64,000 nt of DNA, taken from an uncultured Gammaproteobacteria bacterium (GTDB lineage: Bacteria > Patescibacteriota > Patescibacteriia > S139-126). The first letter of the stretch is position 1, and every line of letters starts with the position of its first letter. This document shows positions 2,456 through 22,061 of this stretch, piece by piece. The stretch spans positions 519,646 to 583,645 of the forward strand of contig CAZUKA010000001.1 in the NCBI GenBank assembly GCA_964620905.1, given 5' to 3'. Under the pieces are notes generated by a model. That model worked only from the letters and a program-made list of their open reading frames with translations. It was not told the origin of the DNA and did no database searches. The position numbers and the translations under genes are program-made.

Positions 2456-2491
2456 TTACCTCCTTTCTTTTTGAAAGTTGGAAAATATTTT

Positions 2492-3372: not shown

Positions 3373-3410
3373 GATCAGTATAGCACATTTTTTGGATTTT
3401 GTCAATAATA
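3373..3410 (-). promoter_or_regulatory. Sigma-70-type promoter (TTGACA-17-TATACT), read on the minus strand.
   Basis: The minus strand reads attgacaaaatccaaaaaatgtgctatact. A 27-nt core is identical to the element at 7068-7094. Confidence 0.5.
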
Positions 3411-3437
3411 AAAATCGTCACTTAAGACGATTTTAGA
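3411..3437 (-). terminator. Rho-independent terminator.
   Basis: Stem aatcgtc/gacgatt followed by a T-run on the minus strand. It lies downstream of the 3455-4933 gene. Confidence 0.5.
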
Positions 3438-3454
3438 AAATACTACTTCAATTA

Positions 3455-4933: not shown

Positions 4934-4941
4934 TTATTTTA

Positions 4942-6414
4942 TTATTTCTTTAAAATCCTCACTACTCCTTTATTAGCATCGACTTCCACCAAATCGCCAT
5001 CCTTTAAAACCTGGGTGGCGATTTTTGTCCCAATGATACAGGGTTTTTTCATTTCCCTCGAAACAATGGCTGCGTGACATAATATACCTCCTTCATCGGT
5101 TATAAAACTTGATGCTTTTTCCATAGCTGGAACAAAGTCAGGTGTAGTCATACTGGTTACTAAAATATTTCCTTTTTTTACCTTTTTTAAATCTTTTGTA
5201 GTATTTACAATCCGAGCTATTCCTTTGACTTTTCCTAGATAAGCAGTTGTCCCTATAATAATCTCAGTTTTGTTGATTATTTCTCTTTCTTTAAATTTAT
5301 TTACTGCTAACTGTCCACTATAAATTTTTAGTTTCCCTTTTTTTAATATTAAAACGCTATTTAAAATTCTTTTTTTAATAATATTTTTTGCCTGAAGTAT
5401 TGAAATTTTATTATTTAATAATAAATTAATTTCTATTGGTGTCAGGTATAAAAACTTTTTTGCTTTAATATTAAATTTTTTTTCCAGATCAATAAACAAT
5501 GGCCATACTTTATACAAAGAAATAAACAATACATCTAATCGATAAGTCCTTAAATAAACAAATTCTCTGGTAATTTCAATCAATTTTATTTCAGCACTGT
5601 TTAATTGCAATTTTCTAATTGCTTTTTTATATTTTAATTCTGTTTGCTTTTCAGAGATGATGATGTCATTCTTTTCTTGTTGACCATCTCTTTTTATTTG
5701 TTTAGATAATCTGACAATCAAATCTTTTTGCGACCAAAAATTACCTTTAAAGTTATGGTCGCCAAGCCATGCCCATCTGTTTAAATGGCTGTTTATTAAA
5801 TTTGATAAGTCAGATTTATTTTTACCAAGAATATTGTATAATTTGAATTCTTTTTTAAATTTTTTATTATTTTTAATTTTTTGTGCCAAATTTAAAAATT
5901 CAATTTTTTCTTGTTGAACTGCACTACGTTTTTTTGCAGAGGTAAATAAAAGATAAACTTCTTGATACTTATTATGATTCTTTTTAAAATCAATTTTGGA
6001 TGAAACTATCTCATTGATTTTATTAGTTAAATATTTTTCTATGACTAAAGGCAAGTGTAGGTATGCCATGATTTTGTATAATCCCGACAAATAAATATCT
6101 AACTGTTGACCAATATCTTGGTTAATTAATTTTGTTTTGGAAAAATTGTCACTAAGTAAAATAAAATTATAAATATCCTGATAGCACTTATCAATAATTT
6201 TTTTAAAATAATTTGGATCTTTTTCTAACTTTTTGTTCAACCTTTTTCCCAATAATTCATAGGCATTGGTTATAAAATTGTCTCCATTTACAATTTTATA
6301 ATCAACAATTGTATAATCAATACCTATCTTATTATAAATTCTAGATCCACCCAACAATTTTGTGGCATCCATAAAAATTGAATTATTTCTTGATAATGTT
6401 TTTTGCCATTTCAT
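4942..6414 (-). CDS. PEP-utilising-enzyme mobile-domain protein, tandem paralogue of 3455-4933.
   Basis: C-terminal GGILCHAAIVSREMKKPCIIGTKIATQVLKDGDLVEVDANKGVVRILKK. The N-terminal ~400 aa are lysine-rich and divergent. Confidence 0.65.
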   Translation of the reverse strand: MKWQKTLSRNNSIFMDATKLLGGSRIYNKIGIDYTIVDYKIVNGDNFITNAYELLGKRLNKKLEKDPNYFKKIIDKCYQDIYNFILLSDNFSKTKLINQDIGQQLDIYLSGLYKIMAYLHLPLVIEKYLTNKINEIVSSKIDFKKNHNKYQEVYLLFTSAKKRSAVQQEKIEFLNLAQKIKNNKKFKKEFKLYNILGKNKSDLSNLINSHLNRWAWLGDHNFKGNFWSQKDLIVRLSKQIKRDGQQEKNDIIISEKQTELKYKKAIRKLQLNSAEIKLIEITREFVYLRTYRLDVLFISLYKVWPLFIDLEKKFNIKAKKFLYLTPIEINLLLNNKISILQAKNIIKKRILNSVLILKKGKLKIYSGQLAVNKFKEREIINKTEIIIGTTAYLGKVKGIARIVNTTKDLKKVKKGNILVTSMTTPDFVPAMEKASSFITDEGGILCHAAIVSREMKKPCIIGTKIATQVLKDGDLVEVDANKGVVRILKK

Positions 6415-6450
6415 ATAAAAAATATACTATTTTATTAATAATCTGTCGAA

Positions 6451-6487
6451 TAAAAAAGCCGAACTTATTTGTTCGGCTTAAAAAAAT
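6451..6487. terminator. Bidirectional rho-independent terminator.
   Basis: 9-bp stem aagccgaac/gttcggctt flanked by A- and T-runs. Confidence 0.55.
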
Positions 6488-6500
6488 TAATTAGTTGGTA

Positions 6501-7004
6501 CTAAACAGTACCCTTTTCAGCAACTCCAGTTGCTACGACTTCTTCAATACTGATAATTTCATTTTCTTCAATAATTACTTTGTATACGGCAGCTGATTTG
6601 GCATCAGCAAAGCCTAACATGATCATTGATGGTCTGCCAGCGCAGACAACGAAATTATCAGGTAGCGAAGCTACCAATGTTTTTGCAGCAGAAGAAGTAT
6701 CATCTAAGGAAGTATATTTATCTGGATCAACGGCAATTCCGCTGGTTAAAAGAATAACCTTTTTTTCATCAATTACTTCCAAAGAATTACCATCCCCAAT
6801 AGTACTAGAATAACGAGTTGGCTCAAGTTCAAGTGCCAATGCAACATCAATATGACGTTTCCCGGTACCAGATAAAACTATGGAGGGATTTTTTGGAACT
6901 AAATTTTTTAAAGCATTTACTTCTATAAAACCTTCTGGTGTCATTCCTGGATCAGGAATATTAGAAAGTTTCCTTCCATGAGTAACAATATAACCGGTTT
7001 TCAC
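6501..7004 (-). CDS. Hypothetical protein, possibly a histidine-phosphatase-like fold.
   Basis: 167 aa. N-terminal IVTHGRK resembles an RHG-type motif, but the match is weak. Confidence 0.35.
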   Translation of the reverse strand: MKTGYIVTHGRKLSNIPDPGMTPEGFIEVNALKNLVPKNPSIVLSGTGKRHIDVALALELEPTRYSSTIGDGNSLEVIDEKKVILLTSGIAVDPDKYTSLDDTSSAAKTLVASLPDNFVVCAGRPSMIMLGFADAKSAAVYKVIIEENEIISIEEVVATGVAEKGTV

Positions 7005-7885: not shown

Positions 7886-7961
7886 TCCGCGGTAGCTCAG
7901 TCGGTAGAGCAACTGGCTGTTAACCAGTGGGTCGTCGGTTCGAGTCCGACCCGCGGAGCCA
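7886..7961 (+). tRNA. tRNA-Asn (GTT), CCA encoded.
   Basis: 7-bp acceptor tccgcgg/ccgcgga. D-loop agctcagtcggtagagc. Anticodon stem actgg/ccagt with loop ctGTTaa. T-arm ggttcgagtcc. Confidence 0.9.
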
Positions 7962-9560
7962 TATGGGATGAACGGACGCAAAACGTCCGTTTTTCTCTTT
8001 ATTCACGGGCTGAACCAGATGTTCGAAAATCTTATTTGGGTCTATTTTCTCTCCTATCAGTTCTCCCACGTGGTCAAAGATGATCTTGAACGCTTTGTGA
8101 TACGAAACCTGGGCGATTTTGCCGTTTAACGTGGCGTTCGAAAATACGAGCGACAGTAAAAGTCTTTTATCGTCCACCATCTCCTCCGTGTCACGGTTGA
8201 TGTAAATTCTCCATGCCTTTTTGGCCACCTGCAAAACCGTGACGCCCATTTCGTAATATTTCAGGTTGGCGTCCTTGTGCTTATTCAGCGTATCGAGTAT
8301 CTGTTCCTGCTCGACTTTGTATTGCTCGAATTTCTTTTTATAAAAGTCCTCGCTGATTTTGTCGTCGATCTTGTCGTCATAGAGCTTATCCAGCCTTTGC
8401 GTGGCTACTTCATAGCGGCGGTTAAGCTCGCCGGTGGCTTTATTGCGGAATTCTATCTCCTCGCTATGGCTTTCTTTCAAAGCTTCTTGCACCCAGTTGA
8501 GCATATTCTCTACGGCTTGCTCGTTTTTCGGGTTGAGCGAGTTGATTTTCTCAAGCATCTGTACGTCCACCGCTTCCTGCCGCACAAATTCGCGTTTGGT
8601 GCAGTTTTTATAATGATTGCAATGGCCGTACCAGTGACCTCGCTGTATCTCCCAAGTGATCCGGCCTTTGCATTCATCGCACCGGAAGACGTTTTTAAAG
8701 AGCGGATTGTGCTTGAAGTATCTTGGCGTGCCGTTTGTATGCATGATTTCCTGGCACCGGTCGAATAATTCTTTCTTGATCAAGGGTTCGTGTCCGGCTT
8801 TGGTTACTTTGCCATCCCAACGGTTCATGCCGTAATAAAACGGATCGCCCAGAAGCTGGTGGACTCTTGAGTGGCTCACTTTGTTGCCTCCCCGGGACCG
8901 CAATCCTTCCTCGTAGATGACATCGGCCAGCTTCTTGGTCGAGTAGCGGTTCGTGGCATACAGATCAAACATCCGTTTGACGAGCGGCGCTTTATCCGGA
9001 TCAAGCACGTGGATTTTGTGTCCCTTCTCGCCGATGGTTTTATATCCGAGCGGCGGCTTGGCCGGAAGCCATCCTTGAGAGAGTTTTTCCTTTTGACCTT
9101 TCTTTACGTTTTCGGAAAGAAGCCGGATGTAATACTCGGCCGTAGCCACTTTGACGCGCCACATAAACCATTCGTGCGATTTGGAGTCTTTGTGAAGCGT
9201 GCAGTTTTCTTTTACCAGATGGATTTTGTGATCGTCGCTCTCCAATATCCAATTATCGATCACCGGCACATCGGCAAAGTTTCTGGTCAGCCGATCGGTG
9301 GTTTCCACGAACACGGTGCTGATCTTAGCTTTGCTTACGAACGCCATCATTTCGTGGAAGATTTTGCGCTGAACCTTACCGGCGGCCGACTCTTGGATAG
9401 CAAAAACCTTCATGAGCTCGTAGCCGTTGCGGTCGGCATAATCACGAAGGAGTTTTTCCTGGGCTGGAAGCGAGTATCCGGTATCCTCCTGATCCTTGGA
9501 TGAGACACGGGCATATCCTACGGCTTTCGGCGGTTGATTTTCATTCATTGTCATAGTCAT
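7920..9560 (-). CDS. Large serine recombinase (serine integrase).
   Basis: N-terminal resolvase-type catalytic motif VGYARVSSKDQ. Central recombinase domain. C-terminal Cys-rich zinc ribbon (CDECKG...HCNHYKNC). The annotated C-terminus reads through the tRNA-Asn 3' half, so the true stop may differ. Confidence 0.85.
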   Translation of the reverse strand: MTMTMNENQPPKAVGYARVSSKDQEDTGYSLPAQEKLLRDYADRNGYELMKVFAIQESAAGKVQRKIFHEMMAFVSKAKISTVFVETTDRLTRNFADVPVIDNWILESDDHKIHLVKENCTLHKDSKSHEWFMWRVKVATAEYYIRLLSENVKKGQKEKLSQGWLPAKPPLGYKTIGEKGHKIHVLDPDKAPLVKRMFDLYATNRYSTKKLADVIYEEGLRSRGGNKVSHSRVHQLLGDPFYYGMNRWDGKVTKAGHEPLIKKELFDRCQEIMHTNGTPRYFKHNPLFKNVFRCDECKGRITWEIQRGHWYGHCNHYKNCTKREFVRQEAVDVQMLEKINSLNPKNEQAVENMLNWVQEALKESHSEEIEFRNKATGELNRRYEVATQRLDKLYDDKIDDKISEDFYKKKFEQYKVEQEQILDTLNKHKDANLKYYEMGVTVLQVAKKAWRIYINRDTEEMVDDKRLLLSLVFSNATLNGKIAQVSYHKAFKIIFDHVGELIGEKIDPNKIFEHLVQPVNKEKNGRFASVHPIWLRGSDSNRRPTG

Positions 9561-9865: not shown

Positions 9866-10438
9866 TTATTTGCCTCGCATCGTCATTTTATCCAGTAAAT
9901 CGGCCTTCATCCGGCGGATTTCCTGTAATTTCTGCGAGCCACCGTTATTTTCTTTATAATTTTCTTTAATTTCTTTTAAACCCTTAACTTCTATATCACC
10001 GCCGTCCGAGGCAGTCTGCTTCCCAAGCCGATCGGTTTTAGATGCAGATTGGCTTCCGTCCTGCATGAGATGTAGGACGGAAAGCAGAGTGATACTCCGA
10101 GGTTTGAACTTGGCATCCTTGCCCCGGACTTTCGTGATCGCGATAAAGCACCACTCCTCGAGCTTAGTGAGGCACTTCTTAATTGTCCGCCAATCTTTGA
10201 GGCCGGAGTACGTGAGAAGCGTTTTGTTGGATGCTTCTATGGTTTGGCTCGCCTTGTTGGAAGCAATCTCGGTTAAGGCGCAATAAACATTCCGCAGGTT
10301 GCGGTAAGCATCATCGCTGATATGTTTATCGAGCCACTGCTTCCGCATATACCGCAAAGCCGGCTTATCCTGATAAGCAAACGGCGCTTCGCGGTAGTCG
10401 CGGACTTTATGATTTTTATTTTGCTGGTTCATCGTCAT
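9866..10438 (-). CDS. Hypothetical protein on the island, possibly replication or regulatory.
   Basis: 190 aa, basic, GC-rich. No conserved motif recognised. The function is suggested only by the adjacent iteron-like repeats. Confidence 0.45.
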   Translation of the reverse strand: MTMNQQNKNHKVRDYREAPFAYQDKPALRYMRKQWLDKHISDDAYRNLRNVYCALTEIASNKASQTIEASNKTLLTYSGLKDWRTIKKCLTKLEEWCFIAITKVRGKDAKFKPRSITLLSVLHLMQDGSQSASKTDRLGKQTASDGGDIEVKGLKEIKENYKENNGGSQKLQEIRRMKADLLDKMTMRGK

Positions 10439-10706
10439 ATGGCACTAAAAGCTTCCGGCCGCTCGTGATGTCCTCGACGTAGAAGCGCATCAAGGCATCG
10501 TAAAAGCCAAGCAGGTTGAAAGCGATATCGTGCAAATCGCGGTCATCGACCTCCTGGCCGAAGTCTTTTTTGAGGATAGCGCGGAGTTTTTCCAGCGTTT
10601 CCGGTTGTAAGTTCACAGGTCTTAGTCCTCGGCATAAATCCGTACTTTGACCTGCTTCAACTGGTTGAAAAACGCTTGAGGCTCGACTTGAAGTTCGCGG
10701 CTCCAA
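10416..10706 (-). CDS. Hypothetical protein. Overlaps the next ORF in another frame.
   Basis: 96 aa ORF. It overlaps 10622-10864 by about 85 nt, so it may be a frameshifted single gene or have a later start. Confidence 0.3.
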   Translation of the reverse strand: MEPRTSSRASSVFQPVEAGQSTDLCRGLRPVNLQPETLEKLRAILKKDFGQEVDDRDLHDIAFNLLGFYDALMRFYVEDITSGRKLLVPYDDEPAK

Positions 10707-10864
10707 TATCGCTTCACCAGAGAATCCAGCTCATGGCTCTTGCCGAAGCAGAAGAGCACCTTGTGCGGATTTCCCCGATCCACGACCTCAAGAGAATCAG
10801 GAATAAATAATAAAAGCACCGCGACCAATGCCAGATCGGCGGTTTTGTAATAATTGTTTTCCAT
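10622..10864 (-). CDS. Hypothetical protein.
   Basis: 80 aa ORF in the GC-rich island. Confidence 0.3.
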   Translation of the reverse strand: MENNYYKTADLALVAVLLLFIPDSLEVVDRGNPHKVLFCFGKSHELDSLVKRYWSRELQVEPQAFFNQLKQVKVRIYAED

Positions 10865-11016
10865 ATGCTGGCATTTTCATCGTCATTAACTTCCTCTCAC
10901 ACACTTTTATTTTTGCAAACGGGATCGGGCTTCTTGAATACTGCGAGCGTATAGTTGCAAAACAAAAAAGCGGCTGTTTCTGCCGCTGATCTTGAGACTT
11001 ATTAACTACACTAGAA

Positions 11017-11682
11017 CTACACCTGTTTTATTTTGTACTCCGGATTGATTTTGTAACCGCTCACGGACCGGCCGGTTATGAAATTATCAACGCCAAGATT
11101 GTACTTTGCTTTGCGATTGATCATGAGCTTGGCATTGTGCAATGCTTTCCGGTTTTTGCTTCCGGTAAGCTCTACCAGCTCGTCTGTCGGCACGAATGTT
11201 TTACGCTCAAGTAAAATCCGGACGATCTTTTGTCTTTGCTTTTCTTTGCCCATTTCATAGCAATGTTTGGCTTTCGGCTCTCGGTATAAGTCGCCGTCGC
11301 TGGAGAAATAGATGACTTTCTTTTTATCTGTCGGTTTCGCTTTCTTGGCGGCTAGTCCGTAGGCCGCGCCCTCGGCCGCCATGCGAGCAATGCTCTTTTC
11401 CAAGTCTGCAACTTTGTTTATGGCCGTCTGATACGCTCGGGTCATAGCTTCCACGCTTTGCGTATTACGGTTCAATGCTTTGGTCAGGTCTACAATAGCC
11501 GGATCACCAGTCTTTACGATGTCCTGCGGATTCTCTATATTCGCAAAATCTTTGAGAGCAGACCGTAGCTCGCTAACGACAGCAGAAATGGTAAATGGAT
11601 AGGTGCTCGTCTTGGCGACAGTCCGTTTGATATTGAATTTGTACTTGGTAGCCAGCGCGGCCTTTTTCATTTTCATAGTCAT
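11017..11682 (-). CDS. Hypothetical protein on the island.
   Basis: 221 aa. Ala/Lys-rich central region. No recognised motif. Confidence 0.5.
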   Translation of the reverse strand: MTMKMKKAALATKYKFNIKRTVAKTSTYPFTISAVVSELRSALKDFANIENPQDIVKTGDPAIVDLTKALNRNTQSVEAMTRAYQTAINKVADLEKSIARMAAEGAAYGLAAKKAKPTDKKKVIYFSSDGDLYREPKAKHCYEMGKEKQRQKIVRILLERKTFVPTDELVELTGSKNRKALHNAKLMINRKAKYNLGVDNFITGRSVSGYKINPEYKIKQV

Positions 11683-11766: not shown

Positions 11767-11958
11767 ATGAGTGACATCGAAAAACTTTTCACCATTGAGG
11801 AAGTCGCCGAGATTTTAAGAGTCCATACCCGGACCGTTACCCGGTATATTGAGGCTGGCCGACTTAAGGCGTCAAAGCTTGGGGTCTGGCGGATCAAGCA
11901 GTCTGATTTAGACGCATTTTTGGAAGAAACGAGTAACGTTAAGAAAAAGAAGAAATAA
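11767..11958 (+). CDS. Excisionase-family (MerR-like) HTH DNA-binding protein.
   Basis: LFTIEEVAEILRVHTRTVTRYIEAGRLKASKLGVWRIKQSDLDAFLEE matches the excisionase-family HTH pattern. It lies 2 nt upstream of mod. Confidence 0.7.
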   Translation: MSDIEKLFTIEEVAEILRVHTRTVTRYIEAGRLKASKLGVWRIKQSDLDAFLEETSNVKKKKK

Positions 11959-11960
11959 AT

Positions 11961-13493
11961 ATGGCATCACTAAATTGGATTGGAAAAGAGGCAGTCTCAA
12001 ACCACGATAAGGAGGTGCCTTTTAAGTTGCTCAAAAAAGTTAAGACAGCTTCAGTTGGCGACAACTCTCAAAATCTAATAATCCACGGAGATAATCTTGA
12101 GGCTCTTAAGGCACTCATGCCTCATTATGTTGGGAAAATAAAATGTATCTATATCGATCCTCCGTACAACACCGGAAATGAAGGTTGGGTATATAACGAT
12201 AAAGTAAACTCGCCGAAAATTAAGCAGTGGCTTGGTAAAGTTGTCGGCCGAGAATCCGAAGACCTAACTCGCCATGATAAATGGTTATGCATGATGTATC
12301 CGCGTCTCAAGCTCATGCGAGACTTACTTGCAGATAACGGATTTATTTTTGTCTCCGTAGATGACAATGAACACTGCAATCTTCGTGGTGCAATGGACGA
12401 GATCTTTCTTGAGAAAAATCATATTACGACTATTGCGTGGCAAAGAAAAAAAGAGAGTTCAAATGATAGCAGAAACATCTCTGTGAAAGCAGAATATATT
12501 GTGGTATACGCACGGTCAGAAATTGCCCAGTTAAACTTACTTTCTTTAAGTGAATCCTATATTGAGACCGCTTATAAATTACCCACCAAAGAATTCCCTC
12601 ATGGGAAGTGGAGGCCTGTTCCTATAGCCACGACAAAAGGACATAAAAGTGGTGGATATACTTATGAGATTGTCACGCCTTCCGGTAAAAAGCATAAAAG
12701 AGAATGGGCTTATCCCGAGGAAAGTTATAAGCGTCTCTTAGGTGAAGGAAAAATATATTTCGGAAAAAGCGGTGATGGGGTTCCTCAGCGTGTTATTTAC
12801 GCGCACGAAAGCACGGGCATACCAGCAAGCAATATTTGGACGGATGTAGCGACAAACAAAGAAGGAAAAAATGAGATAGTAAATTTATTTGGAGATGGTA
12901 CTTTCGAAACGCCAAAGCCCGTAGGGTTAATTAGAAGAATTTTGGAACTCGCAACGGAAAAAGATTCGTTAATCTTAGATTCCTTTGCTGGCTCTGGCAC
13001 AACCGGTCATGCGGTGTTGGATTTGAATAAGGAAGATAACGGAACTCGTAAATTTATTATGGTTGAAATGGAAGACAAAGTTGCAAAGGACATTACCGCT
13101 GAACGGGTTAAGAGAGCGATTAAGAAATACGATTATAAGGATGGCTTCGAGTATTGCGAATTAGATAAGCCGCTCTTTAATGAGCACGGCCAGATTGAGG
13201 AAACATGTGATTTCCGGCAATTCGCAACGTATATTTACTTTACTGAAACGCAAACCAACATTGATCCAAAACTGATTAATGAGAATTATATCGGAGAACT
13301 CGGTACGACTGAGTACTACCTGCTTTATCAAGGAAAGAATAAGAACGATCTCAATAAATCTTTCCTGAAGAAAATCAGAAAAACCGATAATAAGAAGGTC
13401 ATTTATGCGGACCGGTGCTTGATCGACGACGAAACGCTTGCTAAGCATAACGTCGTGTTCAAGCAGATACCTTATGAAGTAAAAGTCTATTAA
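11961..13493 (+). CDS. mod: Type III restriction-modification methyltransferase (Mod), beta-class N6A/N4C MTase.
   Basis: Motif IV IYIDPPYNTGNEGW precedes motif I LDSFAGSGTTGHAV, which is the beta-class order. Res follows 4 nt downstream. Confidence 0.85.
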   Translation: MASLNWIGKEAVSNHDKEVPFKLLKKVKTASVGDNSQNLIIHGDNLEALKALMPHYVGKIKCIYIDPPYNTGNEGWVYNDKVNSPKIKQWLGKVVGRESEDLTRHDKWLCMMYPRLKLMRDLLADNGFIFVSVDDNEHCNLRGAMDEIFLEKNHITTIAWQRKKESSNDSRNISVKAEYIVVYARSEIAQLNLLSLSESYIETAYKLPTKEFPHGKWRPVPIATTKGHKSGGYTYEIVTPSGKKHKREWAYPEESYKRLLGEGKIYFGKSGDGVPQRVIYAHESTGIPASNIWTDVATNKEGKNEIVNLFGDGTFETPKPVGLIRRILELATEKDSLILDSFAGSGTTGHAVLDLNKEDNGTRKFIMVEMEDKVAKDITAERVKRAIKKYDYKDGFEYCELDKPLFNEHGQIEETCDFRQFATYIYFTETQTNIDPKLINENYIGELGTTEYYLLYQGKNKNDLNKSFLKKIRKTDNKKVIYADRCLIDDETLAKHNVVFKQIPYEVKVY

Positions 13494-13497
13494 TACT

Positions 13498-15753
13498 ATG
13501 GAACTAAAACGCTACCAAAAAAATACATTAGAGACGCTCGAGCAATTCTTGAAGGAATTGCATAAAGCTGGCTTGAAGTACGCCTTCATGGGCATTACGG
13601 AAAAGCCGTACAGAGCTGAAGCTTTTGGCGAAGTTCCATTTGTCTGCATTAAAATTCCTACCGGGGGTGGCAAGACATTGGTTGGCTGTCATGCCGTAGA
13701 AAAAATAATGAGCGGTGCCCTACAGAACAAATTGGATCGTGGCATAGTTCTTTGGTTTACACCGTCCGAAGCCATCAAGACACAAACACTTAAGAAATTT
13801 AAAGATCGCAAAGATTGGCATCGCAGGGCGTTGGACGAAGCCTTTGATAATAACGTTAAGGTGTTTTCAAACGAGGAGGCTCTTACCATTCGCAAAGAAG
13901 ACGTAAACGGAAACCTTTGTATTATTGTTGCCAGCCTTGAGGCATTCAGAAAAGAAAAAACACTCCAAAATAAATATAAAGTCTATCAGGAGAATGGTGC
14001 GCTCTTAGATCACTTTGAGCATATCGAGGAATCAGATTATCTCGAACGAGATAGTGAAGGAACCGTTGTTAATTCTCTTGCTAATGTCGTCCGGTTAAGC
14101 AACCCACTTGTGGTTATCGATGAGGGTCATAAAACGGCTACTAAACTTTCGATTGATTTCCTCAAAGACCTTAATCCCAGCTTTATTATTGAATATACCG
14201 CTACTCCACGGGATAACAGCAACATTCTCGTTGAGGTTCATGCTTCCGAGCTGAAAGAAGAACAAATGGTGAAGATCCCCATCGTTCTCGAGAGCGCCGC
14301 GCAGTGGCAGAACGCCATTATCCGCGGTGTTGAAAAGCGCATTGAGCTAGAGAAGGATGCAAAGAAAATTAAAGGCGAGTATATACGGCCTATTGCATTG
14401 CTTCAGGCACAGCCAAAAGATGAAAATATCACTGTTGAGAAAATAAAAGAATTTTTACTCGAACGGAAGATACCTGCTGAACAGATCGCAATAAAAATCT
14501 CAGGAAAAAACGAACTCGAGAGAGTAGACCTCTTCGACAGAAAATGTCCGATACGTTACATCATTACAGTAAATGCCCTAGCCGAAGGATGGGATTGTTC
14601 CTTCGCTTATATTCTTGTTTCGGTTGCGAACCTTGGCTCAAAAATTGCTGTTGAGCAGATCATCGGGCGCATCATTCGTTTACCGTACGCCAAGAAAAAA
14701 GCCAATGAAGACTTTAATAGAAGTTATGTCTTTGCTTCTGCTAGGAACTTTAATGAGGCAGCAAGCCAAATTATTTCAGGCCTTGAGACTAACGGCTACA
14801 GTAAGGCAGATATCATAGGTGCGGATAAAAAGGACGCTTCGTATGAGTTGGAAACCAAAAAGGCGGTTTCTGACACGCTCAAAATGCCGATGGTGGCTTT
14901 GGATGGTGAACTGTTGTCATTTGAAGACTTGATTGGTAGTGATTTTGAGTTGTCAAAGCAGGATTACAAATTTGAGTTCCAGATCCATTACGATAACGAC
15001 GGCCGAGCGATCATTGATATCAAAGAGGATGAATGGATGCGCGGCAAGCAGATGTTTTTGAAGCTAAGTTATTCAGACAAAAACTTCACTAAGAATGAGT
15101 TGGTGCAATGGCTTGATAAAAAGCTACGTTTCCCGCTTTTAGAAAAATCAGACAAGGTTGGTTTTCTCGATAAAGCTATTGAGCACCAGCTTAAAACTCA
15201 TACACTTTCCGAACTTTCAGTAAATCGCTACGTCTTAGCTGATCGCTTGAGCGAGGTTATCAACGGCATCCTTGAGGAATATGCCAAGAAAAAATTTGAT
15301 GCTCTGTTGCAGAAAAAGAAAATCGTCACTGAACAGTTCGAGGCATTTCCGGCTGTTATTACTCTCAAGCGACCAGAGCCGAAGGAGTTTAACAAATGCT
15401 ATTACGAGAAAATCGATAAATTGAATGGTGAAGAGCGTGAGTTCGTTGATCGTCTCGATCTCGACACCTTACCCAATGTTAAATATTGGGTTCGTAGCCG
15501 CGAGAAAACCGATCCGTTTTATATTCAGGGTTGGAAGCGAGGAAAGTTTTATCCGGACTTCATTGCGGTCACTAAGAAGGGCGCAATCGTAGCTCTTGAA
15601 TGGAAGGGTGCGGACCGGATAAGCAACGAAGATACGGCATACAAAGTTGAGATCGGTGGAATGTGGTCGAAGCTTGGCAAAGGAAAACTATACTTTTTCT
15701 TGGTGCATACGGGGAATGTTGAAGAAGTGCTGAAGGAAGTTAAAGAATTGTAA
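13498..15753 (+). CDS. res: Type III restriction endonuclease Res subunit (SF2 helicase-like).
   Basis: Walker A KIPTGGGKT. Motif II VVIDEGHK. Helicase C-terminal motifs. 751 aa, immediately downstream of mod. Confidence 0.85.
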   Translation: MELKRYQKNTLETLEQFLKELHKAGLKYAFMGITEKPYRAEAFGEVPFVCIKIPTGGGKTLVGCHAVEKIMSGALQNKLDRGIVLWFTPSEAIKTQTLKKFKDRKDWHRRALDEAFDNNVKVFSNEEALTIRKEDVNGNLCIIVASLEAFRKEKTLQNKYKVYQENGALLDHFEHIEESDYLERDSEGTVVNSLANVVRLSNPLVVIDEGHKTATKLSIDFLKDLNPSFIIEYTATPRDNSNILVEVHASELKEEQMVKIPIVLESAAQWQNAIIRGVEKRIELEKDAKKIKGEYIRPIALLQAQPKDENITVEKIKEFLLERKIPAEQIAIKISGKNELERVDLFDRKCPIRYIITVNALAEGWDCSFAYILVSVANLGSKIAVEQIIGRIIRLPYAKKKANEDFNRSYVFASARNFNEAASQIISGLETNGYSKADIIGADKKDASYELETKKAVSDTLKMPMVALDGELLSFEDLIGSDFELSKQDYKFEFQIHYDNDGRAIIDIKEDEWMRGKQMFLKLSYSDKNFTKNELVQWLDKKLRFPLLEKSDKVGFLDKAIEHQLKTHTLSELSVNRYVLADRLSEVINGILEEYAKKKFDALLQKKKIVTEQFEAFPAVITLKRPEPKEFNKCYYEKIDKLNGEEREFVDRLDLDTLPNVKYWVRSREKTDPFYIQGWKRGKFYPDFIAVTKKGAIVALEWKGADRISNEDTAYKVEIGGMWSKLGKGKLYFFLVHTGNVEEVLKEVKEL

Positions 15754-15765
15754 ATCCTGTAATAA

Positions 15766-16680
15766 ATGGCTAATGAGAATCTTGCAACAAAAGGACCTTC
15801 TCCAAGTGACCTGATAGAACAAAATTCTAAGCAGATCTTTGAGTCAAAGTTACCGCTGACAGGTAGAATATTTATCTGGTATCCAGACAAAAATCCTAAT
15901 ACTGACGGTCACATTGAATTTCTAGGAGAACATGGTTCTACAACTGTTAAACTGTTTTTCCAATTGAAAAGCAGTGAGCAGGATATTGCATATCATGATT
16001 GCGATCGTTCCTTTTTAAATTATTGTTATCAATCTGCTGAACCAACTTTTATAGTTTTTGTTAATATTCCCCAAAAAAAAGTTTACTGGGAGCACATTAC
16101 TCAGTCTTACATTGAGGATGTGCTTGGCGTAAAAAATTTGACCGATTTTAATCAACAAACTAAAAGGATAAGTTTTTCAGAAGAAAAACTCATAGATAAT
16201 AATGCACAAAAACTTATTGAGGAATGTAGGAAACATTATCAAGATAAGTCAAAAGTAGAGGCAGAAGTACAAAGCAATATTTCCGCAGAGCAAAAGCAGA
16301 TCGATATTTTAACCGATGGGGCGCAAAAAGAAGAGGGTGTTGATTACGACATAATAAGAAAAAAGTTCGCCTCGTTGCTTGGTAACATGACCGATAAGAT
16401 GATGTTATATTTTGCTCTGGTTCATATTCTCAAGCCATTTTATTTAGATCAAAGAGGAGAGAAAAAACGCAGAATACTCCTGAGATTCTTGCAAATAACT
16501 GATTCTCAAGAACGATTTCTAATAGAAAGCCTGATAAATGCGAATTTGCTAGGGAGAGTTGGCGAGTTAATTTTTCCAATACGCAAAGAAGAAGCAGTTT
16601 CCGTTATTGAACGTTACATTGATAATGGCCAAGTTGATCTAGCAGAAATAACGCAATTATTCTCTCAAAATGAAGATTAA
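15766..16680 (+). CDS. Uncharacterised protein (304 aa). The N-terminal domain may be restriction-endonuclease-like. Candidate defence-associated.
   Basis: Lies 12 nt after the res stop. Its stop overlaps the next gene's start by 11 nt. No NTPase or MTase motifs. The N-terminal region GRIFIWYPDKNPNTDGHIEFLGEHG...KLFFQLK is reminiscent of DUF4365-type domains found in defence islands, but the assignment is uncertain. Confidence 0.5.
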   Translation: MANENLATKGPSPSDLIEQNSKQIFESKLPLTGRIFIWYPDKNPNTDGHIEFLGEHGSTTVKLFFQLKSSEQDIAYHDCDRSFLNYCYQSAEPTFIVFVNIPQKKVYWEHITQSYIEDVLGVKNLTDFNQQTKRISFSEEKLIDNNAQKLIEECRKHYQDKSKVEAEVQSNISAEQKQIDILTDGAQKEEGVDYDIIRKKFASLLGNMTDKMMLYFALVHILKPFYLDQRGEKKRRILLRFLQITDSQERFLIESLINANLLGRVGELIFPIRKEEAVSVIERYIDNGQVDLAEITQLFSQNED

Positions 16681-19108
16681 ACCAGACAAAAACTTAATAG
16701 CGACATACATGTCGCTCAGTAGCAAGAAGGCCGATGAATATCTGGCTAATTTAGCGAATCAAATAAAAACAGAAATTCAGAACTCATCAGATTATGATGA
16801 AATTTTTGAGTATTTGGAATTACTTGGAGAATTTGTTTATAAAGCACCTAACGAAACTACTCGGATCGTAAGCCACATTGTGGATAAAAAACCCAATCCT
16901 CCAGCCACTCACAAATCTCCATTCGGTGAGTTTGAAGGAAAGTCATACAAGGACTTGATATTGAAGTGTATCGAACTACTTGGTCATATCAGATATATTG
17001 CTCCGGATGATGTCTTGAAATTAATTGCGCAGCTTTCGCTATCAGAAGACCAAAATATAAAAAGCAAAACTCTAGAAGCCTTAAAAAAGTTTGCTCAATA
17101 CGATTTTAATGTCCTTACCAAGAGTAAAATTGGTTATGGAGCACAGAGAAAGGCTCTTGATTTCATCCTTGCATGGACCCGTGATGAGCAATTTCAACAT
17201 ATTGATTTTGTTGAAAAAGTATTAAGAGAGTTGCTTAGCGCTTCTGTAGAAGGAACCACGTCAGGATTAAACGATGAAGCACAGTATACAATAACGATGC
17301 ATTTTGGTGCTGTCTCGCCAACAGATTTTTTGAAGAAATTGCGCCGTGAGGTAATAGATCTTGTATATGAGTTATATTCAACAACCAAAGATTCAAAATT
17401 AAAATTAAAACTTGTAGAGATTCTTGATGAAACAACACGGACTCCCTCAAATGTAGCTTATGGAGATGATGTAGCTCAAATGATTGTTGATGATCTTAAA
17501 TATCTAACTGGAATTTATCGTAAAATCATCTTCCCAGAAACCGGAAAGATGAATGATCATTTAGGCATCATTGCCACTGTTGAGGAGCGACTCTATTGGA
17601 TTAACAGAAGCGAGAAAAGGCGTGCTGAAGAATCGGAACAACTACGTCAAGATATTTTGAATGACGAACTGTATCATCTTTTCAGGTTACTTGTTGGGGA
17701 CCCTGTTACATATCAGGAACAGGAAGGTTGGAATACGGCTGAAAAAAATAGAGCCGAAGAGACTGAGCAAGTCATAAGCTCAATTGAGGAAACTGAAATT
17801 GAAAAATGGCTTGAAAAATTTAATAAAATTGCTTCTCAGCATGTGCTTGTTGATGAGTGGAAATTTAACCCCTTTAAAGGACTTTTAAGAAAGCTTGCTG
17901 AAACAAAACCTATTGTAGCTGAGAAAATCTTAGAAAGTGTGTTCGTAAGCAATGCCCCTCTCAAGCATTTTACTAGCAGCTTCTTGGATGGTTTTAGAAT
18001 GGGTTCCCATTTCAAACAATGGGATAAATTTATATCGAAAATCATTGAGAATAAAGATACTTCTTTGATAAGTGGGATAGTTTTCTCTCTTAATCTTCCC
18101 GCTGATGCAGACTTACAGAAGCTTATGAGAGAAGAGGATATTGATTTACTTAAAAAAATAGCAAATCGAGTTGACCAATTTTCATTCCTTGATCAGGAAG
18201 ATGACCGGGTCCTGTTATATGCCCTCTTTAATACTTTGTCTCGTAATTTCCAGCGCGCCCCTCAAAGCATTGAGCCGCTAATTGTAGAGCAGATAAAGAA
18301 ACACCCTAAATATTTGGGTATGTTTTTCTCTGAGTTATCAATGATTACTCATAGGAAGTGGATCGATATCAAAAATCTACAACCCGAAACCATTGCTTTT
18401 CTTGAGGAGAAAATTGTTGAGCTTCCTGATGTTGATTGGCACGTTCAAGAGCTGTTGTTAGAAATCGGACAACAATATGGTCTTGGCAAAGTACTGGACG
18501 TGTTTATGAATAGAATTAAAAAAGATGCAGAGAAAGATAAAAAGAAGCCACGACGTATTGGTGACGATAGGTATGAAGTGATTCCTTACCATTTCAACCC
18601 AGACTTAAGTGCGTTTATTACTGAGCACGAAGACTACATAAAAATTGCTGGCAGTTGGGTTGCTGAAATGACTACCGACTGGAGTGGCTACAATTGGCAC
18701 GTTAGTCATTTTCTACAAAGGAATGGTAAAGGGTTTGATGAAATCTTGGCCTCTCTTATAGAGAAAGGTGATGACGAGAGCTTATTGAAAGCAGCTCGTG
18801 CTATGCATTCTATTGAAGGAACTAATTTTGATTTGTGTATTGAAATAGTACGCCAAACTGATAATAAAAGAGTTTTAAGTCAGGTCGACAGCAATATGTA
18901 CACAACTGGTGTCGTGTCAGGTGAGTATGGACTAGCGGAAGCCTATGAGGCTAAAGCAAAAGCACTAGAAAAATATAAAAATGATGAAAGTAAACGAGTT
19001 ATGAAATTTGCGGAAAGAATGATAGTAAGTTTTCTTGATAGTGCAAAAAGAGAACGCCAGCGCACGGACGAAGAAAAACAGCTAAGAAAAATTGAATTTG
19101 AGGAATAA
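16670..19108 (+). CDS. Uncharacterised large alpha-helical protein (812 aa), partner of 15766-16680.
   Basis: Translationally coupled to the upstream gene. Helical-repeat-like composition. No Walker A (only GEFEGKS, which is one residue short). No recognisable catalytic motif. Confidence 0.5.
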   Translation: MKIKPDKNLIATYMSLSSKKADEYLANLANQIKTEIQNSSDYDEIFEYLELLGEFVYKAPNETTRIVSHIVDKKPNPPATHKSPFGEFEGKSYKDLILKCIELLGHIRYIAPDDVLKLIAQLSLSEDQNIKSKTLEALKKFAQYDFNVLTKSKIGYGAQRKALDFILAWTRDEQFQHIDFVEKVLRELLSASVEGTTSGLNDEAQYTITMHFGAVSPTDFLKKLRREVIDLVYELYSTTKDSKLKLKLVEILDETTRTPSNVAYGDDVAQMIVDDLKYLTGIYRKIIFPETGKMNDHLGIIATVEERLYWINRSEKRRAEESEQLRQDILNDELYHLFRLLVGDPVTYQEQEGWNTAEKNRAEETEQVISSIEETEIEKWLEKFNKIASQHVLVDEWKFNPFKGLLRKLAETKPIVAEKILESVFVSNAPLKHFTSSFLDGFRMGSHFKQWDKFISKIIENKDTSLISGIVFSLNLPADADLQKLMREEDIDLLKKIANRVDQFSFLDQEDDRVLLYALFNTLSRNFQRAPQSIEPLIVEQIKKHPKYLGMFFSELSMITHRKWIDIKNLQPETIAFLEEKIVELPDVDWHVQELLLEIGQQYGLGKVLDVFMNRIKKDAEKDKKKPRRIGDDRYEVIPYHFNPDLSAFITEHEDYIKIAGSWVAEMTTDWSGYNWHVSHFLQRNGKGFDEILASLIEKGDDESLLKAARAMHSIEGTNFDLCIEIVRQTDNKRVLSQVDSNMYTTGVVSGEYGLAEAYEAKAKALEKYKNDESKRVMKFAERMIVSFLDSAKRERQRTDEEKQLRKIEFEE

Positions 19109-19112
19109 AAGT

Positions 19113-19445
19113 ATGGAAATCGAATCAAAAAAACAAATTCTTGAACGGCGGAAAGAGATTGAGCAGGAACTCGTGGAAAAGCTCAAAGAGACCGAGAGTG
19201 ATTTTACTTTGGATCATGTCCGGGATGCTATTTATAACGAGGAAGAAAGCGACGACATGATGAAAGTTGTTGCTATGTTTGATGGTTCGACTTCGCTCAC
19301 CACAGGTCGCGGTGGTGATGCCACCGAGCTTGAAAATGTGCTCGAGTTGGTCAGCGATGCGTGGAATTATTTTCCGCACAAAGTACTCGGTGGCATCTCT
19401 CCGGCCGAGAAATTATTAGAGCATCACAATAAAACTAAAAAATAA
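19113..19445 (+). CDS. Small acidic hypothetical protein.
   Basis: About 110 aa. A GAGGA Shine-Dalgarno sits 8 nt upstream of ATG at 19113. Begins 4 nt after the stop of the 812 aa gene. Confidence 0.45.
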   Translation: MEIESKKQILERRKEIEQELVEKLKETESDFTLDHVRDAIYNEEESDDMMKVVAMFDGSTSLTTGRGGDATELENVLELVSDAWNYFPHKVLGGISPAEKLLEHHNKTKK

Positions 19446-19447
19446 AT

Positions 19448-19924
19448 ATGAAAATCAACAACACATTCAAACTCATCATCGCAATAGTTGTTTCTGAGCT
19501 GGCAGGTATCATCGGTTCGGTGTTTACGACTCCGTCTATTGATGGCTGGTACTCGACGCTTGTTAGGCCAGCACTTAATCCTCCGGCATGGGTATTCGGA
19601 CCCGTCTGGACGACCCTCTTTGCCCTTATGGGCATTGCGGCGTTTCTTGTTTGGAAAAAAGGATTGGATCGCAGGGATGTAAAAATCGCTCTCGGCATAT
19701 TTCTCGGCCAGCTAGTGCTCAATACACTCTGGTCAATCATCTTTTTCGGCCTGCATTCTCCGGGCGGCGCGTTTATTGAGATCATATTCCTCTGGCTTGC
19801 CATTCTTACTACGATCATCGCTTTTGCACGTATCTCGAAACCGGCCGCCTGGCTTCTTGTGCCATATATCCTCTGGGTCAGCTTTGCCGCGTATCTTAAT
19901 TACTCTATTTGGATGTTGAATTAA
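19448..19924 (+). CDS. tspO: TspO/MBR family tryptophan-rich sensory (translocator) protein.
   Basis: 158 aa with five transmembrane segments. WYSTLVRPALNPPAWVFGPVWTTLFALMGIAAFLVW and Trp-rich helices are characteristic of TspO. Confidence 0.8.
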   Translation: MKINNTFKLIIAIVVSELAGIIGSVFTTPSIDGWYSTLVRPALNPPAWVFGPVWTTLFALMGIAAFLVWKKGLDRRDVKIALGIFLGQLVLNTLWSIIFFGLHSPGGAFIEIIFLWLAILTTIIAFARISKPAAWLLVPYILWVSFAAYLNYSIWMLN

Positions 19925-19928
19925 ACAT

Positions 19929-20396
19929 ATGGAACACTACAAACACACTCAAATTGGTTATCTGATGATCTTTATAACGCTCATGGTGCTGGTCTTTTTC
20001 GCATGGCTTCAGATTACGGCTAGAGCCGAGCCGCCCTCTGTTGATTCAGGTGCAAATTTTGCTATGACAGCCGTCATGGTACTGGTAGTGCTTATTCTTG
20101 CATCTTTCGGCTGGCTTACCGTGAGAGTTGACGAACAACATGTGGCAATCAAGTTTGGCTGGGGAATATTCCGCAAAAAATTCTCAACAAGTGAGATTGC
20201 TTCGGTCGCGCAGGTAAAAAATCATTGGTATTACGGATGGGGCATCCGATTGTGGTTTTGGCCGAAAATGTGGATTTATAATGTCTCCGGCTTTGATGCC
20301 ATAGAGCTGACTATGAAAAACGGAAAAATCTATCGCATCGGCACTGACGAGACAGAAAAACTTGAGTCCGCAATCAAGCGAGTCATATTTGCTTAA
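19929..20396 (+). CDS. Membrane protein with two N-terminal transmembrane helices and a PH-like soluble domain, hypothetical.
   Basis: 155 aa. The C-terminal region resembles bacterial PH (YdbS/T-like) domains. Last gene of the island operon. Confidence 0.45.
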   Translation: MEHYKHTQIGYLMIFITLMVLVFFAWLQITARAEPPSVDSGANFAMTAVMVLVVLILASFGWLTVRVDEQHVAIKFGWGIFRKKFSTSEIASVAQVKNHWYYGWGIRLWFWPKMWIYNVSGFDAIELTMKNGKIYRIGTDETEKLESAIKRVIFA

Positions 20397-20723
20397 CTTT
20401 TCAGAAATTAAGCAAATCGTCCCAGGCTCTCAAATTTCGTCCAATGGCTTGGTGAGTCTGCAACATGGGTCAAACGTCTAGCCCGGGGACAAAGCTCGCC
20501 CCCGGGGCAAACAAACGGCAATTCCGGTGGGTTCTAAACGTGTTCGTATTTGGCGAGTAAACCTTTCATCTGGTCGAGCATAACCGTCGGGTATTTGTAC
20601 TCTTTGATCCAGTCAAACGCTCGAAAGTCACGGAGAAGGGCGAGCCATGAAAATTGCGTCACCATTAGGTGGCGCTATTTTCATATCTGGGAGGATGAGA
20701 AGTTTATCCCGCCAACGGCGGGA

Positions 20724-20744
20724 AGTCCGACCCGCGGAGCCATA
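20724..20744 (+). repeat. attR-side direct repeat, a copy of the tRNA-Asn 3' end.
   Basis: The 21 nt agtccgacccgcggagccata are identical to 7943-7963. A hairpin cccgccaacggcggg lies just upstream. Confidence 0.7.
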
Positions 20745-22016
20745 ACAAAGAACACCACATTTATTGGTGTTTTTTGTATAGGGCAAGTGAAGGTTATAAT
20801 CAAACTTTATAATTTTGTGTATAATTATACATAGACCTTAAATTTAATAATTAAGTTGTATAATTATGTGGGAATTATTTATTGATATTTTAGCTAGTTT
20901 ATGCTCATTTGTGCTCTCAATATCTATTTTTATTATTTTGCCGATCGCATTATATAGAGGTATTAAGAAAAAGAATTGGAAATTATTAAGAATTGTTTTA
21001 TTCACGATCATTTCATCTGCCGGTATTTATACTTTACTCATCTTTTCTATATTACCATCATTAATAAATGAGCCTATTAAAACCCAAAGTAGTGTAGATA
21101 ATTTGTTACCTATGTACGGTGGAGAAAATCGAATAAAAACATCTTCTCAAATAGAAGCAGACGAAAAATTTATATCAGAAATGATTGACATTGCAGGAAG
21201 TAGAGAGGAAGCGGCAGAGGGTATCGTAAACGGAGCTTGGGAATTTTTTGAGCAGGGTGATATTGATATAGCGATGAAAAGATTTAATCAAGCTTGGCTA
21301 CTAGACCCACAGAATATAGAAGCTTATAAGGGCTTCGCCGCAATTTTAGAAAAGAGAGGTCAGCCTGAAGAAGCACGAAAGATGCTACAAAAAGCTCAAG
21401 ACGTTAGTACTGCAAAGTAAAATATAATATATATTAATAAAAACTATTGTTATATGGAGAGTAGGGTAGACTAGAAAGTATATATTACACCACACCGCTG
21501 GTTCTAATTTTCTCCACATTATGAAATATACCTAATGAAGGTAGTTAAATTTTTTAGTTCCTAGCGACCGTGTTGTTTAGTAATAGTTTGTCAGTTATAA
21601 TATAGAATACTCCACTAAGGGGTATTTTTGTGAAAATGTTTTTTTATTGACAAAACAGTAAAAGTGTAACGTTTTTTAAATAACTGCCCATTATATAAAT
21701 GTATAATTGTGTTAATAATTAACAATAAAAATATGGATAAAAAAATGTATATAAATAGCACCATAGGTCTTGCTATTTTGACCATATTTATCCCAAGAGT
21801 TCTTTTATAGTAACTTTTTCTCAATCTGTTACAATTACTAATATATACACATCCTATCCAGACATTCTAAACTAATATAATTTATTTCAATTATCACCTA
21901 AAGGCTTAACTATTTGTTAAGCCTTTTTAATTATTTAAGTTATATTTATTTAACTCTTTCTTACTAATTTTTATGGATAAATATATCCTAGTAAGTTCGG
22001 TAAGTATGTAATCTGT
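20745..22016. mobile_element. Degenerate second islet (remnant element or satellite) of about 1.3 kb.
   Basis: Bounded by 45-nt direct repeats (20736-20780 and 22017-22061) that consist of the tRNA 3' tail plus a terminator-like hairpin. It contains a single TPR gene and no recombinase. Confidence 0.45.
20866..21420 (+). CDS. Membrane-anchored TPR-repeat protein.
   Basis: Two N-terminal transmembrane helices. C-terminal TPR-like repeats (AWEFFEQGDIDIAMKRFNQAWLLDPQNIEAYKGFAAILEKRGQPEEA). Confidence 0.55.
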   Translation: MWELFIDILASLCSFVLSISIFIILPIALYRGIKKKNWKLLRIVLFTIISSAGIYTLLIFSILPSLINEPIKTQSSVDNLLPMYGGENRIKTSSQIEADEKFISEMIDIAGSREEAAEGIVNGAWEFFEQGDIDIAMKRFNQAWLLDPQNIEAYKGFAAILEKRGQPEEARKMLQKAQDVSTAK

Positions 22017-22061
22017 GGAGCCATACAAAAACCACCAATCTTTATTGGTGTTTTTTGTATA
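22017..22061 (+). repeat. Direct repeat: tRNA-Asn 3' tail plus terminator hairpin. Likely the original host sequence downstream of the tRNA.
   Basis: ggagccatacaaaaaccaccaatctttattggtgttttttgtata matches 20736-20780 with a few mismatches. It contains the hairpin caccaat/attggtg followed by a T-run. Confidence 0.55.

Follow-up and report, generated by a model that had tools for sequence, protein, structure and literature searches.

The question raised by positions 11767 to 20396 of the 64,000-nucleotide stretch analysed here (the window, always meaning this whole stretch, from contig CAZUKA010000001.1 of an uncultured bacterium assigned by GTDB to the Patescibacteriota) is whether eight closely packed genes, in which a Type III restriction-modification (RM) system is followed by five genes of less obvious nature, form one functional system or a row of separate ones. 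We conclude with considerable confidence that the eight genes form a mosaic made up of four modules that are independent of one another: i) a small helix-turn-helix (HTH) protein, P1; ii) the Mod and Res proteins of the RM system, P2 and P3; iii) a pair of proteins of 304 and 812 residues, P4 and P5, which is the most novel element of the cluster; and iv) a small acidic protein, a TspO protein, and a possibly PH-like membrane protein, P6, P7, and P8. For the locus as a whole, the reading that we favour on balance is a mosaic cargo array, probably co-transcribed, in which Type III RM, a P4-P5 sensor–effector pair, and a backbone cassette stand together on a tRNA-Asn serine-recombinase island.

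All eight open reading frames (ORFs) lie on the plus strand, at 11767-11958, 11961-13493, 13498-15753, 15766-16680, 16670-19108, 19113-19445, 19448-19924, and 19929-20396, with gaps of 2, 4, 12, -11, 4, 2, and 4 nt, coordinates and spacing that reproduce those of a first-pass annotation in which the eight were taken as one unit. The 16670 start of P5, and hence its 11-nt overlap with P4, is supported because the first 15 residues of the 812-residue protein are conserved in homologues; the deposited P5 call (P0001, 799 residues) starts 13 codons later. The longest ORF for P6 begins with a TTG at 19092, and the ATG at 19113 agrees with the N-termini of homologues. The sigma-70-like site TTGACA-17-TAAAAT upstream of P1 (11714..11742, plus strand; a consensus match only, 11/12) is present as first reported and is the best-scoring promoter-like site between 7 and 23 kb, and a divergent site, TTGTCA-17-CATAAT, lies at 11720-11692 on the minus strand (also a consensus match only, 10/12); promoter-like sites are, however, no commoner than in shuffles (33 found, 38.2 expected), so that TTGACA-17-TAAAAT is by itself weak evidence. 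Strong internal terminators, which in the first-pass annotation would have counted against a single operon, were sought and none was found inside 11767-20396, the best plus strand terminator-like site (20656-20675) coming after the last gene. A single transcript is plausible because no strong terminator intervenes, and co-transcription of the eight genes would be a plausible prediction from the sequence. The same annotation had named an independent distribution of the downstream genes as grounds for giving up the single unit, and here the idea is not supported: the P4-P5 pair and the P6, TspO, and PH genes are found without each other, the type of adjoining RM system varies, and none of 100 other loci carries all eight genes. 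Composition is likewise divided into blocks, GC content at third codon positions (GC3) being 0.50-0.62 in the island backbone, 0.40-0.46 in Mod and Res, 0.29-0.32 in P4-P5, and 0.46-0.54 in P6-TspO-PH.

The five genes downstream of res had at first been left uncharacterised, and this holds for P5 and P6, which have no family match, but not for the 304-residue P4 (15766..16680, plus strand), the effector of the pair, which is a DUF4365/DREN-type PD-(D/E)xK nuclease with a winged-helix tail (PF14280, 4e-11; AlphaFold2 and Foldseek). In the AlphaFold2 model (mean predicted local distance difference test score, pLDDT, 74.6) an N-terminal nuclease domain is followed by a disordered linker (residues 161-191) and a C-terminal winged helix, with D47, Q66, and K68 invariant. 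Among PDB structures the N-domain comes closest in fold to SPARDA DREN chains (Foldseek E 2e-7), and the C-terminal part matches MarR/SmtB winged helices in fold; a PDB sequence search with the partner profile gave no match. A partner gene lies directly upstream of P5 in every unfused case, usually overlapping it and at most 79 nt away (44 loci aligned), and only the C-terminal 100-150 residues of P4 are kept across partners bearing other effectors. The modelled winged helix, conserved before every unfused P5 gene, may serve as a "docking" domain.

P5 (16670..19108, plus strand) is an 812-residue all-alpha HEAT/ARM solenoid (AlphaFold2 pLDDT 87.8; Foldseek). It has no match in Pfam, NCBIfam release 20, PADLOC-DB v2, or PHROG, a P5 profile found nothing below E 0.1 among PDB sequences, and its Foldseek matches are SF3B1, CAND1, and karyopherins, at TM-scores of 0.2-0.34. 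The family is nonetheless large: a full profile scan returned 1,271 representatives of 50%-identity clusters at E<=1e-3, 592 of them below 1e-30, and a word-indexed search returned 98 close relatives. Named relatives are nearly all Patescibacteria, and members occur in cultured Legionella, Rhizobium, and Pseudanabaena. A tblastn search of phages gave no P5 match and scans of viral contigs gave a single remote one (L101; none for P8), which argues that the module is not typically phage-borne. It does occur on plasmids: pairs of PIN and HEAT proteins, annotated as hypothetical, are found on plasmids of Legionella adelaidensis, where the two proteins are WP_058461130.1 and WP_058461131.1, and of Pseudanabaena galeata, and a Rhizobium rhizogenes plasmid carries a 1,310-residue P5-type fusion adjoining SIR2, VapBC, and integrase genes. 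The Rhizobium protein (L102, plasmid pC6.5d, WP_234913363.1) is named a "poly-gamma-glutamate hydrolase family protein", has an IS256 element also nearby, and is in part distantly similar to P5 (21% identity across 78% of the query); it may represent a further type of effector fused to a HEAT sensor.

The anatomy of the family, read from 86 further loci besides the window, is that of a constant protein with changing partners. Among 44 separate partner genes, 13 encode DUF4365, at least 5 HNH, and 4 PIN_12 domains, the remainder having no assigned domain, whereas among 48 long representatives (~1,000 residues) the fused effector is RelA_SpoT in 22, DUF4365 in 16, and TIR and NB-ARC in one each. 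"Rosetta-stone" fusions of DUF4365 to P5 include P0098, L085, and the 16 long representatives just counted. PADLOC recognises the effector domains of these fusions, the RelA/SpoT domains of all 22 matching its PDC-S33, and not the P5 part. A SIR2 domain was found neither in P4 or P5 nor among the 48 fused and 44 split partners. P5 is the component that stays constant, and presumably acts as sensor or scaffold. A sensor-like protein that is kept while the toxic effectors are exchanged, in split as well as fused forms, is the classic signature of sensor–effector immunity of the abortive-infection type, and architecture and neighbourhood together make it likely that P4-P5 is a defence system.

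How firmly is the pair tied to RM? We counted 47 evaluable non-redundant loci, defining a chain as genes on the same strand with every gap <150 nt; 13 of them carry an RM gene directly upstream in such an operon-like chain, and 20 carry one within 9 kb. With ~70% of the loci lacking RM in the chain, the association is no more than a tendency. The RM systems are of three kinds: Type III Mod and Res precede the pair in L008, L038, L022, L033, and L062; a PLD-nuclease/SNF2-helicase with an Eco57I/TaqI_C-type methylase in L002, L013, and L005 (in the last with a small opposite-strand ORF between it and the pair), with the methylase alone in L006, L020, L024, and L061; and GmrSD with Type I HsdR/HsdMS in L065. 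The junctions between RM and module are +12 nt in the window, -4 in L002, -23 in L013, -20 in L020, +6 in L008, +8 in L038, and +29 in L065, and such frequent overlap means more than the loose company of a defence island; it suggests that the pair has been recruited repeatedly as a downstream add-on to helicase-type RM operons.

These junctions also speak for the strongest alternative, in which P4-P5, instead of sensing structural proteins of phages, would guard RM in the manner of PrrC-EcoprrI or PARIS, monitoring the neighbouring ATP-dependent RM enzyme or phage anti-restriction proteins directed against it and freeing the nuclease when restriction is disabled. The module is joined, overlapping or nearly so, to the 3' end of three kinds of helicase-type RM operons, the linked RM systems are all translocating, ATP-dependent types, and the class with HNH partners is RM-linked in most evaluable cases. 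Against this, the window pair and the L013 pair, ~70% identical in nucleotide sequence over both genes, follow Type III and PLD-SNF2/Eco57I systems respectively, and related pairs behind unrelated RM systems argue against a specific physical partner; in 34 of the 47 evaluable loci the chain contains no RM; the class with 440-residue partners usually stands alone, behind a gap of ~120-1,040 nt; and no RM adjoins the pairs of Legionella and Pseudanabaena. Since related pairs follow unrelated RM systems and most members follow none, we prefer an independent second-line module packaged together with RM to a guard of a specific RM enzyme, and consider the guard unlikely, although one that senses a generic anti-restriction factor would still be conceivable.

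Less probable still, with perhaps an outside chance, is that P4-P5 is a selfish module that stabilises the island or competes for it, rather than an antiviral system protecting the host; it would then cause addiction in the way of a toxin–antitoxin system, or attack competing mobile elements. The module is indeed carried on recombinase-bearing islands and plasmids, pairs an effector of toxic type with a large protein that might serve as antitoxin, and has VapBC as a neighbour in Rhizobium. A highly conserved HEAT solenoid of 800 residues would be atypical of an antitoxin, however, and effector swapping (TIR and NB-ARC included) and an RM neighbourhood are typical of immune systems; selfish and immune roles are, moreover, not mutually exclusive.

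Other neighbours of P5 are varied. A conserved third gene after P5 was sought and not found, the genes directly after it being heterogeneous: a small protein with two transmembrane helices in 4 loci, P6 in 2, and unrelated genes in the others. The small protein (80-86 residues; 10414-10674 in L002/L012/L034, 4876-5118 in L030, and 6630-6881 in L053) represents a second type of membrane protein behind the HEAT module and is unrelated to TspO and PH. Directly upstream of the P5 module in the distant loci L004 (3560-7065) and L085 (3535-7009) is a conserved trio of genes for proteins of ~627 residues, ~285 residues, and a DUF6339 protein; the first two have no Pfam match, and the trio may be another uncharacterised defence-type system. 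In L069 a RelA/SpoT-HEAT fusion is preceded by a MORC-like GHKL ATPase to which Sigma70_r4 and DnaA_C HTH domains are joined (1234-3282), and in L009 a 691-residue protein with no Pfam match and a 399-residue protein with Sigma70_r4/DnaA_C HTH domains (3339-6622) lie further upstream of the fusion.

The genes before the pair are more familiar. P1 (11767..11958, plus strand, 63 residues) is an excisionase-family, MerR-type HTH protein (PF12728, 1.6e-17; TIGR01764 "excise", 3.4e-12; PHROG excisionase families), in agreement with its first description as Xis-like, and could be a regulator at the operon head or a recombination directionality factor. A P1 homologue heads an RM, HNH, and HEAT operon in L002/L034, with a 1-nt gap, and these are the only other arrays found to be headed by such a protein. 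The MADS system was rejected as a candidate: P1 reaches only 31 of the 80 bits required by the Mad1 model (NF047737), and there are no other Mad matches (Mad2-8). P2 (11961..13493, plus strand, 510 residues) is a Type III Mod methyltransferase (PADLOC MTase_III PDLC03644, 3e-166, residues 1-509 aligning to model positions 1-541 of 542; PF01555, 2e-38), with DPPY at residue 66 upstream of the FxGxG motif (FAGSG) at 342. Directly downstream on the same strand, after a 4-nt gap, P3 (13498..15753, plus strand, 751 residues) is a Type III Res with an SF2 helicase and a C-terminal PD-ExK nuclease motif (PF04851, 1.6e-12; PADLOC REase_III PDLC03650, 5e-95), having GGGKT at 56, DEGH at 208, and PD at 686 with EWK at 701 (PD...ExK, 686-703). 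Profiles and motifs therefore agree with the original identification of both proteins, and judged by them Mod and Res make up a complete, ordinary Type III system. Like RM systems of the EcoP15I kind it has mod before res, the beta-class order of Mod motifs, and a Res with SF2 helicase motifs and a C-terminal PD-ExK; it differs in nothing notable, though Res has 751 residues rather than the ~900 of the PADLOC model, to which only its N-terminal 432 residues align.

The last three genes form a cassette with a history of its own. P6 (19113..19445, plus strand, 110 residues) is, as first described, a small acidic protein (isoelectric point, pI, 4.8), here predicted to be cytosolic, with nothing meaningful in Pfam, NCBIfam, PADLOC, or PHROGs; a resemblance to GajB (4.6e-4) falls below any cut-off and was treated as chance. 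P7 (19448..19924, plus strand, 158 residues) is a TspO/MBR membrane protein, as had been proposed (PF03073, 7e-53, residues 12-156 on positions 1-145 of the 145-position model). P8 (19929..20396, plus strand, 155 residues) had been called a PH-like membrane protein; a scan for transmembrane helices supports the membrane part, with two helices and a soluble domain of ~90 residues, and the PH part is suggested weakly by a bPH_4 match (E=0.19) and by the name "PH domain-containing protein" given by NCBI to one 72%-identical homologue. A resemblance of P8 to HRG (2.4e-3) was likewise below any cut-off and taken as chance. P8 has >3,300 homologues, the top 120 of which, at 70-85% identity, are spread across many Patescibacteria lineages; the named ones are nearly all Patescibacteria.

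Outside the window the cassette recurs behind unrelated RM or defence genes rather than with P5. Of the 86 other P5 loci, 84 lack P6, TspO, and PH alike, the exceptions being L020 (P6) and L016 (TspO, 1.5 kb after P5). A PH gene accompanied by TspO and/or P6 ends co-oriented defence-type arrays in 6/6 other evaluable contexts, and the arrays differ: ResIII-Vsr-GHKL-Dcm in L091-93; an N4/N6 methyltransferase with MvaI/BcnI-Dcm-GHKL-NOV_C in L096/97; GmrSD-AAA_15-UvrD-PDDEXK in L094, where the AAA_15 and UvrD pair is Gabija-like; and Eco57I-type methylases in L088, L090, and L098-100. The PH protein is 72-79% identical to the copies in the sampled contexts; P6 copies, 81-83% identical, immediately precede the PH gene in L088, L089, and L091-93, while the copy in L020 comes behind a RelA-HEAT fusion; and TspO copies, 60-88% identical, adjoin the PH gene in L088, L090, L094, L095, and L098-100. 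An RM system beside membrane proteins, at first thought unusual, is therefore an arrangement that recurs in Patescibacteria and is not peculiar to this island. In L094 (5393-6415), L098, and L100 the TspO gene beside the PH gene is 335-340 codons long, twice the usual length, which suggests a TspO fusion or extension. A single eight-gene system coupling membrane sensing to restriction could appeal to the common strand, gaps of 2-12 nt, one good promoter-like site, the lack of a strong internal terminator, the PH and/or TspO genes downstream of RM or defence genes in all six of those contexts, and the P6 and TspO genes after P5 in L020 and L016, but is highly improbable, since each module has its own distribution and GC3, the full set occurs in 0/100 other loci, and the defence genes upstream of TspO-PH are mutually unrelated, so that a positional link fits better than a mechanistic one.

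The non-coding sequence after P8 is conserved as well. This tail (20397..20650) is 69-81% identical to sequence downstream of the PH gene in L091 (8866-9250), L094, and L096 (7452-7860), and has no Rfam match; it includes a hairpin, TTGCTTAA-N12-TTAAGCAA (20389-20416), a GC hairpin (~20484-20507), and a 43-codon antisense ORF (20534-20665). Recombination site, small RNA, and small gene are all conceivable roles for it. In L091-L093 (8878-9680) the PH gene is followed by an inserted insertion sequence (Transposase_mut), the conserved tail, a 63-nt match of 92% identity to window positions 7946-8008, which is the attL-side end of the island, and a remnant of the C-terminus of a serine recombinase. 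This looks like an attP-like or tandem-island junction. From GC3 and the L091 junction, the simplest reading would be that the cassette is a backbone part shared by a family of integrative elements, next to a slot in which defence cargo collects.

The island itself was recognised in the first-pass annotation and is confirmed by its 21-bp repeats, tRNA-Asn gene, and serine recombinase: an attachment site in tRNA-Asn and the recombinase bound 12.8 kb that hold the eight-gene cluster. The target is tRNA-Asn (GTT) (7886..7961, plus strand; ARAGORN; Rfam RF00005, 73 bits), whose 3' end is supplied by the island-side copy of the repeat, attL (AGTCCGACCCGCGGAGCCATA, 7943..7963; repeat search, family D2). 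The right copy, attR (20724..20744; repeat search), is 100% identical, lies 12,781 nt away, and is followed by the original terminator hairpin of the tRNA. The large serine recombinase (7920..9560, minus strand, 546 residues; PF00239 Resolvase, 1e-22; PF07508 Recombinase, 5e-18) has its last codons running across attL into tRNA-Asn, and homologous recombinases adjoin the P5 module in 12 loci, the window included. Between it and P1 are uncharacterised backbone genes on the minus strand (9866..11682; ORF list) for proteins of 190, 96, 80, and 221 residues, with GC3 of 0.50-0.58, similar to that of the recombinase; the 80-residue protein is DUF5659 (PF18903, 1.1e-08), and a DUF5659 homologue adjoins the recombinase in L003. 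GC content is 0.40-0.49 on the island and 0.26-0.38 in the flanks. The att core of the window has no copy in the 100 loci fetched, the tRNAs adjoining related loci have no shared target among them, and a megablast search of plasmids with the cluster gave no match.

Beyond attR, the tRNA-Asn tail and terminator hairpin (20736-20780) are repeated 1.28 kb on at 22017-22061 (78% identity), with a third, weak copy at 21591-21635 (60% identity); the repeated tails may have been left by an earlier or a tandem insertion that enclosed a gene for a TPR protein (20866-21420). On the other side of the island, two neighbouring genes of ~490 codons at 3455-6414 (GC 0.26-0.28, GC3 0.20-0.22, pI 9.7-9.9) lie far below the remaining host flank in composition.

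If the array is a mosaic of defence cargo, its parts might work as follows. Type III RM would be the first line, cutting unmethylated incoming DNA. The P5 solenoid would bind the winged-helix tail of P4 and so keep the DREN-type nuclease inactive until P5 recognised a cue of infection, for which a phage protein is the likeliest candidate given DSR2 and CapRel; P4, released or oligomerised, would then degrade nucleic acid indiscriminately, and the pair would form an abortive-infection second line behind RM. P6-TspO-PH would belong to the island backbone, and to neither defence system, and mark the distal edge of the slot that in related elements holds varying defence cargo. The specific activation of P4 by P5 is put forward tentatively. 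We wish to stress that a bolder proposal, improbable when taken whole, would go well beyond this: that the P5 family is a widespread new anti-phage system with plug-in effectors (DREN, HNH, PIN, RelA/SpoT, and TIR), with an enrichment in Patescibacteria and DPANN-type genomes and a habit of joining RM operons, and that P6-TspO-PH is a functional membrane partner of RM and defence arrays in these episymbionts, for instance gating or sensing DNA entry at the envelope.

Several observations weigh against the reading that we favour. The role of P4-P5 in defence is drawn from architecture and neighbourhood only; the HEAT fold matches of P5, at the low TM-scores given above, are generic, with no DSR2 chain among the matches listed, and P5 has no detectable sequence similarity to DSR2 in PADLOC or among PDB sequences; and no RM gene stands in the chain in 34 of the 47 evaluable loci. 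A repeat of 21 bp is long for a serine recombinase. The case for the cassette as backbone consists of GC3 and one attP-like junction (L091), around most other PH genes there is no recombinase within 7 kb, and it is equally possible that TspO-PH is a conserved chromosomal anchor beside a defence hotspot or has an RM-linked function of its own.

If P4-P5 does defend its hosts, it would represent a large unnamed family, with a constant sensor and interchangeable suicide effectors, for which Pfam, NCBIfam, and PADLOC have no sensor model, and would be one of a small number of such systems with their main distribution in the ultra-small Patescibacteria and DPANN lineages, about whose immunity little is known. 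The splicing of the pair onto three kinds of RM operon makes layered defence, or the guarding of restriction, directly testable, and the TspO-PH cassette at the edge of defence arrays offers a handle for finding slots of defence cargo in candidate-phyla-radiation genomes. PANGU (10.64898/2026.04.06.716658) is unrelated. No description of the P4-P5 pair or of the P6-TspO-PH cassette was found in the literature, although the pair may be named in resources outside those searched.

Comparison with known systems places the pair among several of them. In PrrC–EcoprrI an anticodon nuclease is embedded in a Type I RM operon, and the window resembles it in having a gene for a suicide effector embedded in, and co-oriented with, an operon for ATP-dependent RM; the proteins are unrelated, however, and the P5 module keeps to no single type of RM, following Type III, Type I, PLD-SNF2/Eco57I, or none. 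Fused toxSAS of the CapRel type, with a toxSAS-type effector and a C-terminal sensor, are matched by the 22 of 48 long P5 members that have an N-terminal RelA/SpoT domain, but the P5 sensor is a HEAT protein of ~800 residues and not a small pseudo-ZFD antitoxin domain, and the window copy uses a nuclease. SPARDA shares with P4 the nuclease family of its N-domain (DUF4365/DREN by Pfam, and the best structural match); in SPARDA, DREN is a collateral DNase/RNase whose activity, after the sensor has fired, leaves the cell dead or dormant (PMC12205087). Unlike SPARDA, the island has no APAZ domain and no Argonaute among its ORFs, the C-terminus of P4 is a winged helix, and the sensor is a HEAT solenoid rather than a guide-loaded prokaryotic Argonaute. 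DSR2 activates its effector once a phage tail-tube protein is bound in the HEAT/C-terminal cavity (PMC11263360). Its N-terminal toxic effector, HTH/helical elements, and long HEAT sensor are matched in size and layout by the fused P5 members of ~1,000 residues; the effector of DSR2 is SIR2, whereas that of the window is DUF4365 and those of other members are HNH, PIN, RelA/SpoT, or TIR, and in the window the effector is a separate polypeptide, presumably joined to its sensor through the winged-helix tail. In layout, DSR2 is the nearest analogue that we can offer for the P4-P5 pair.

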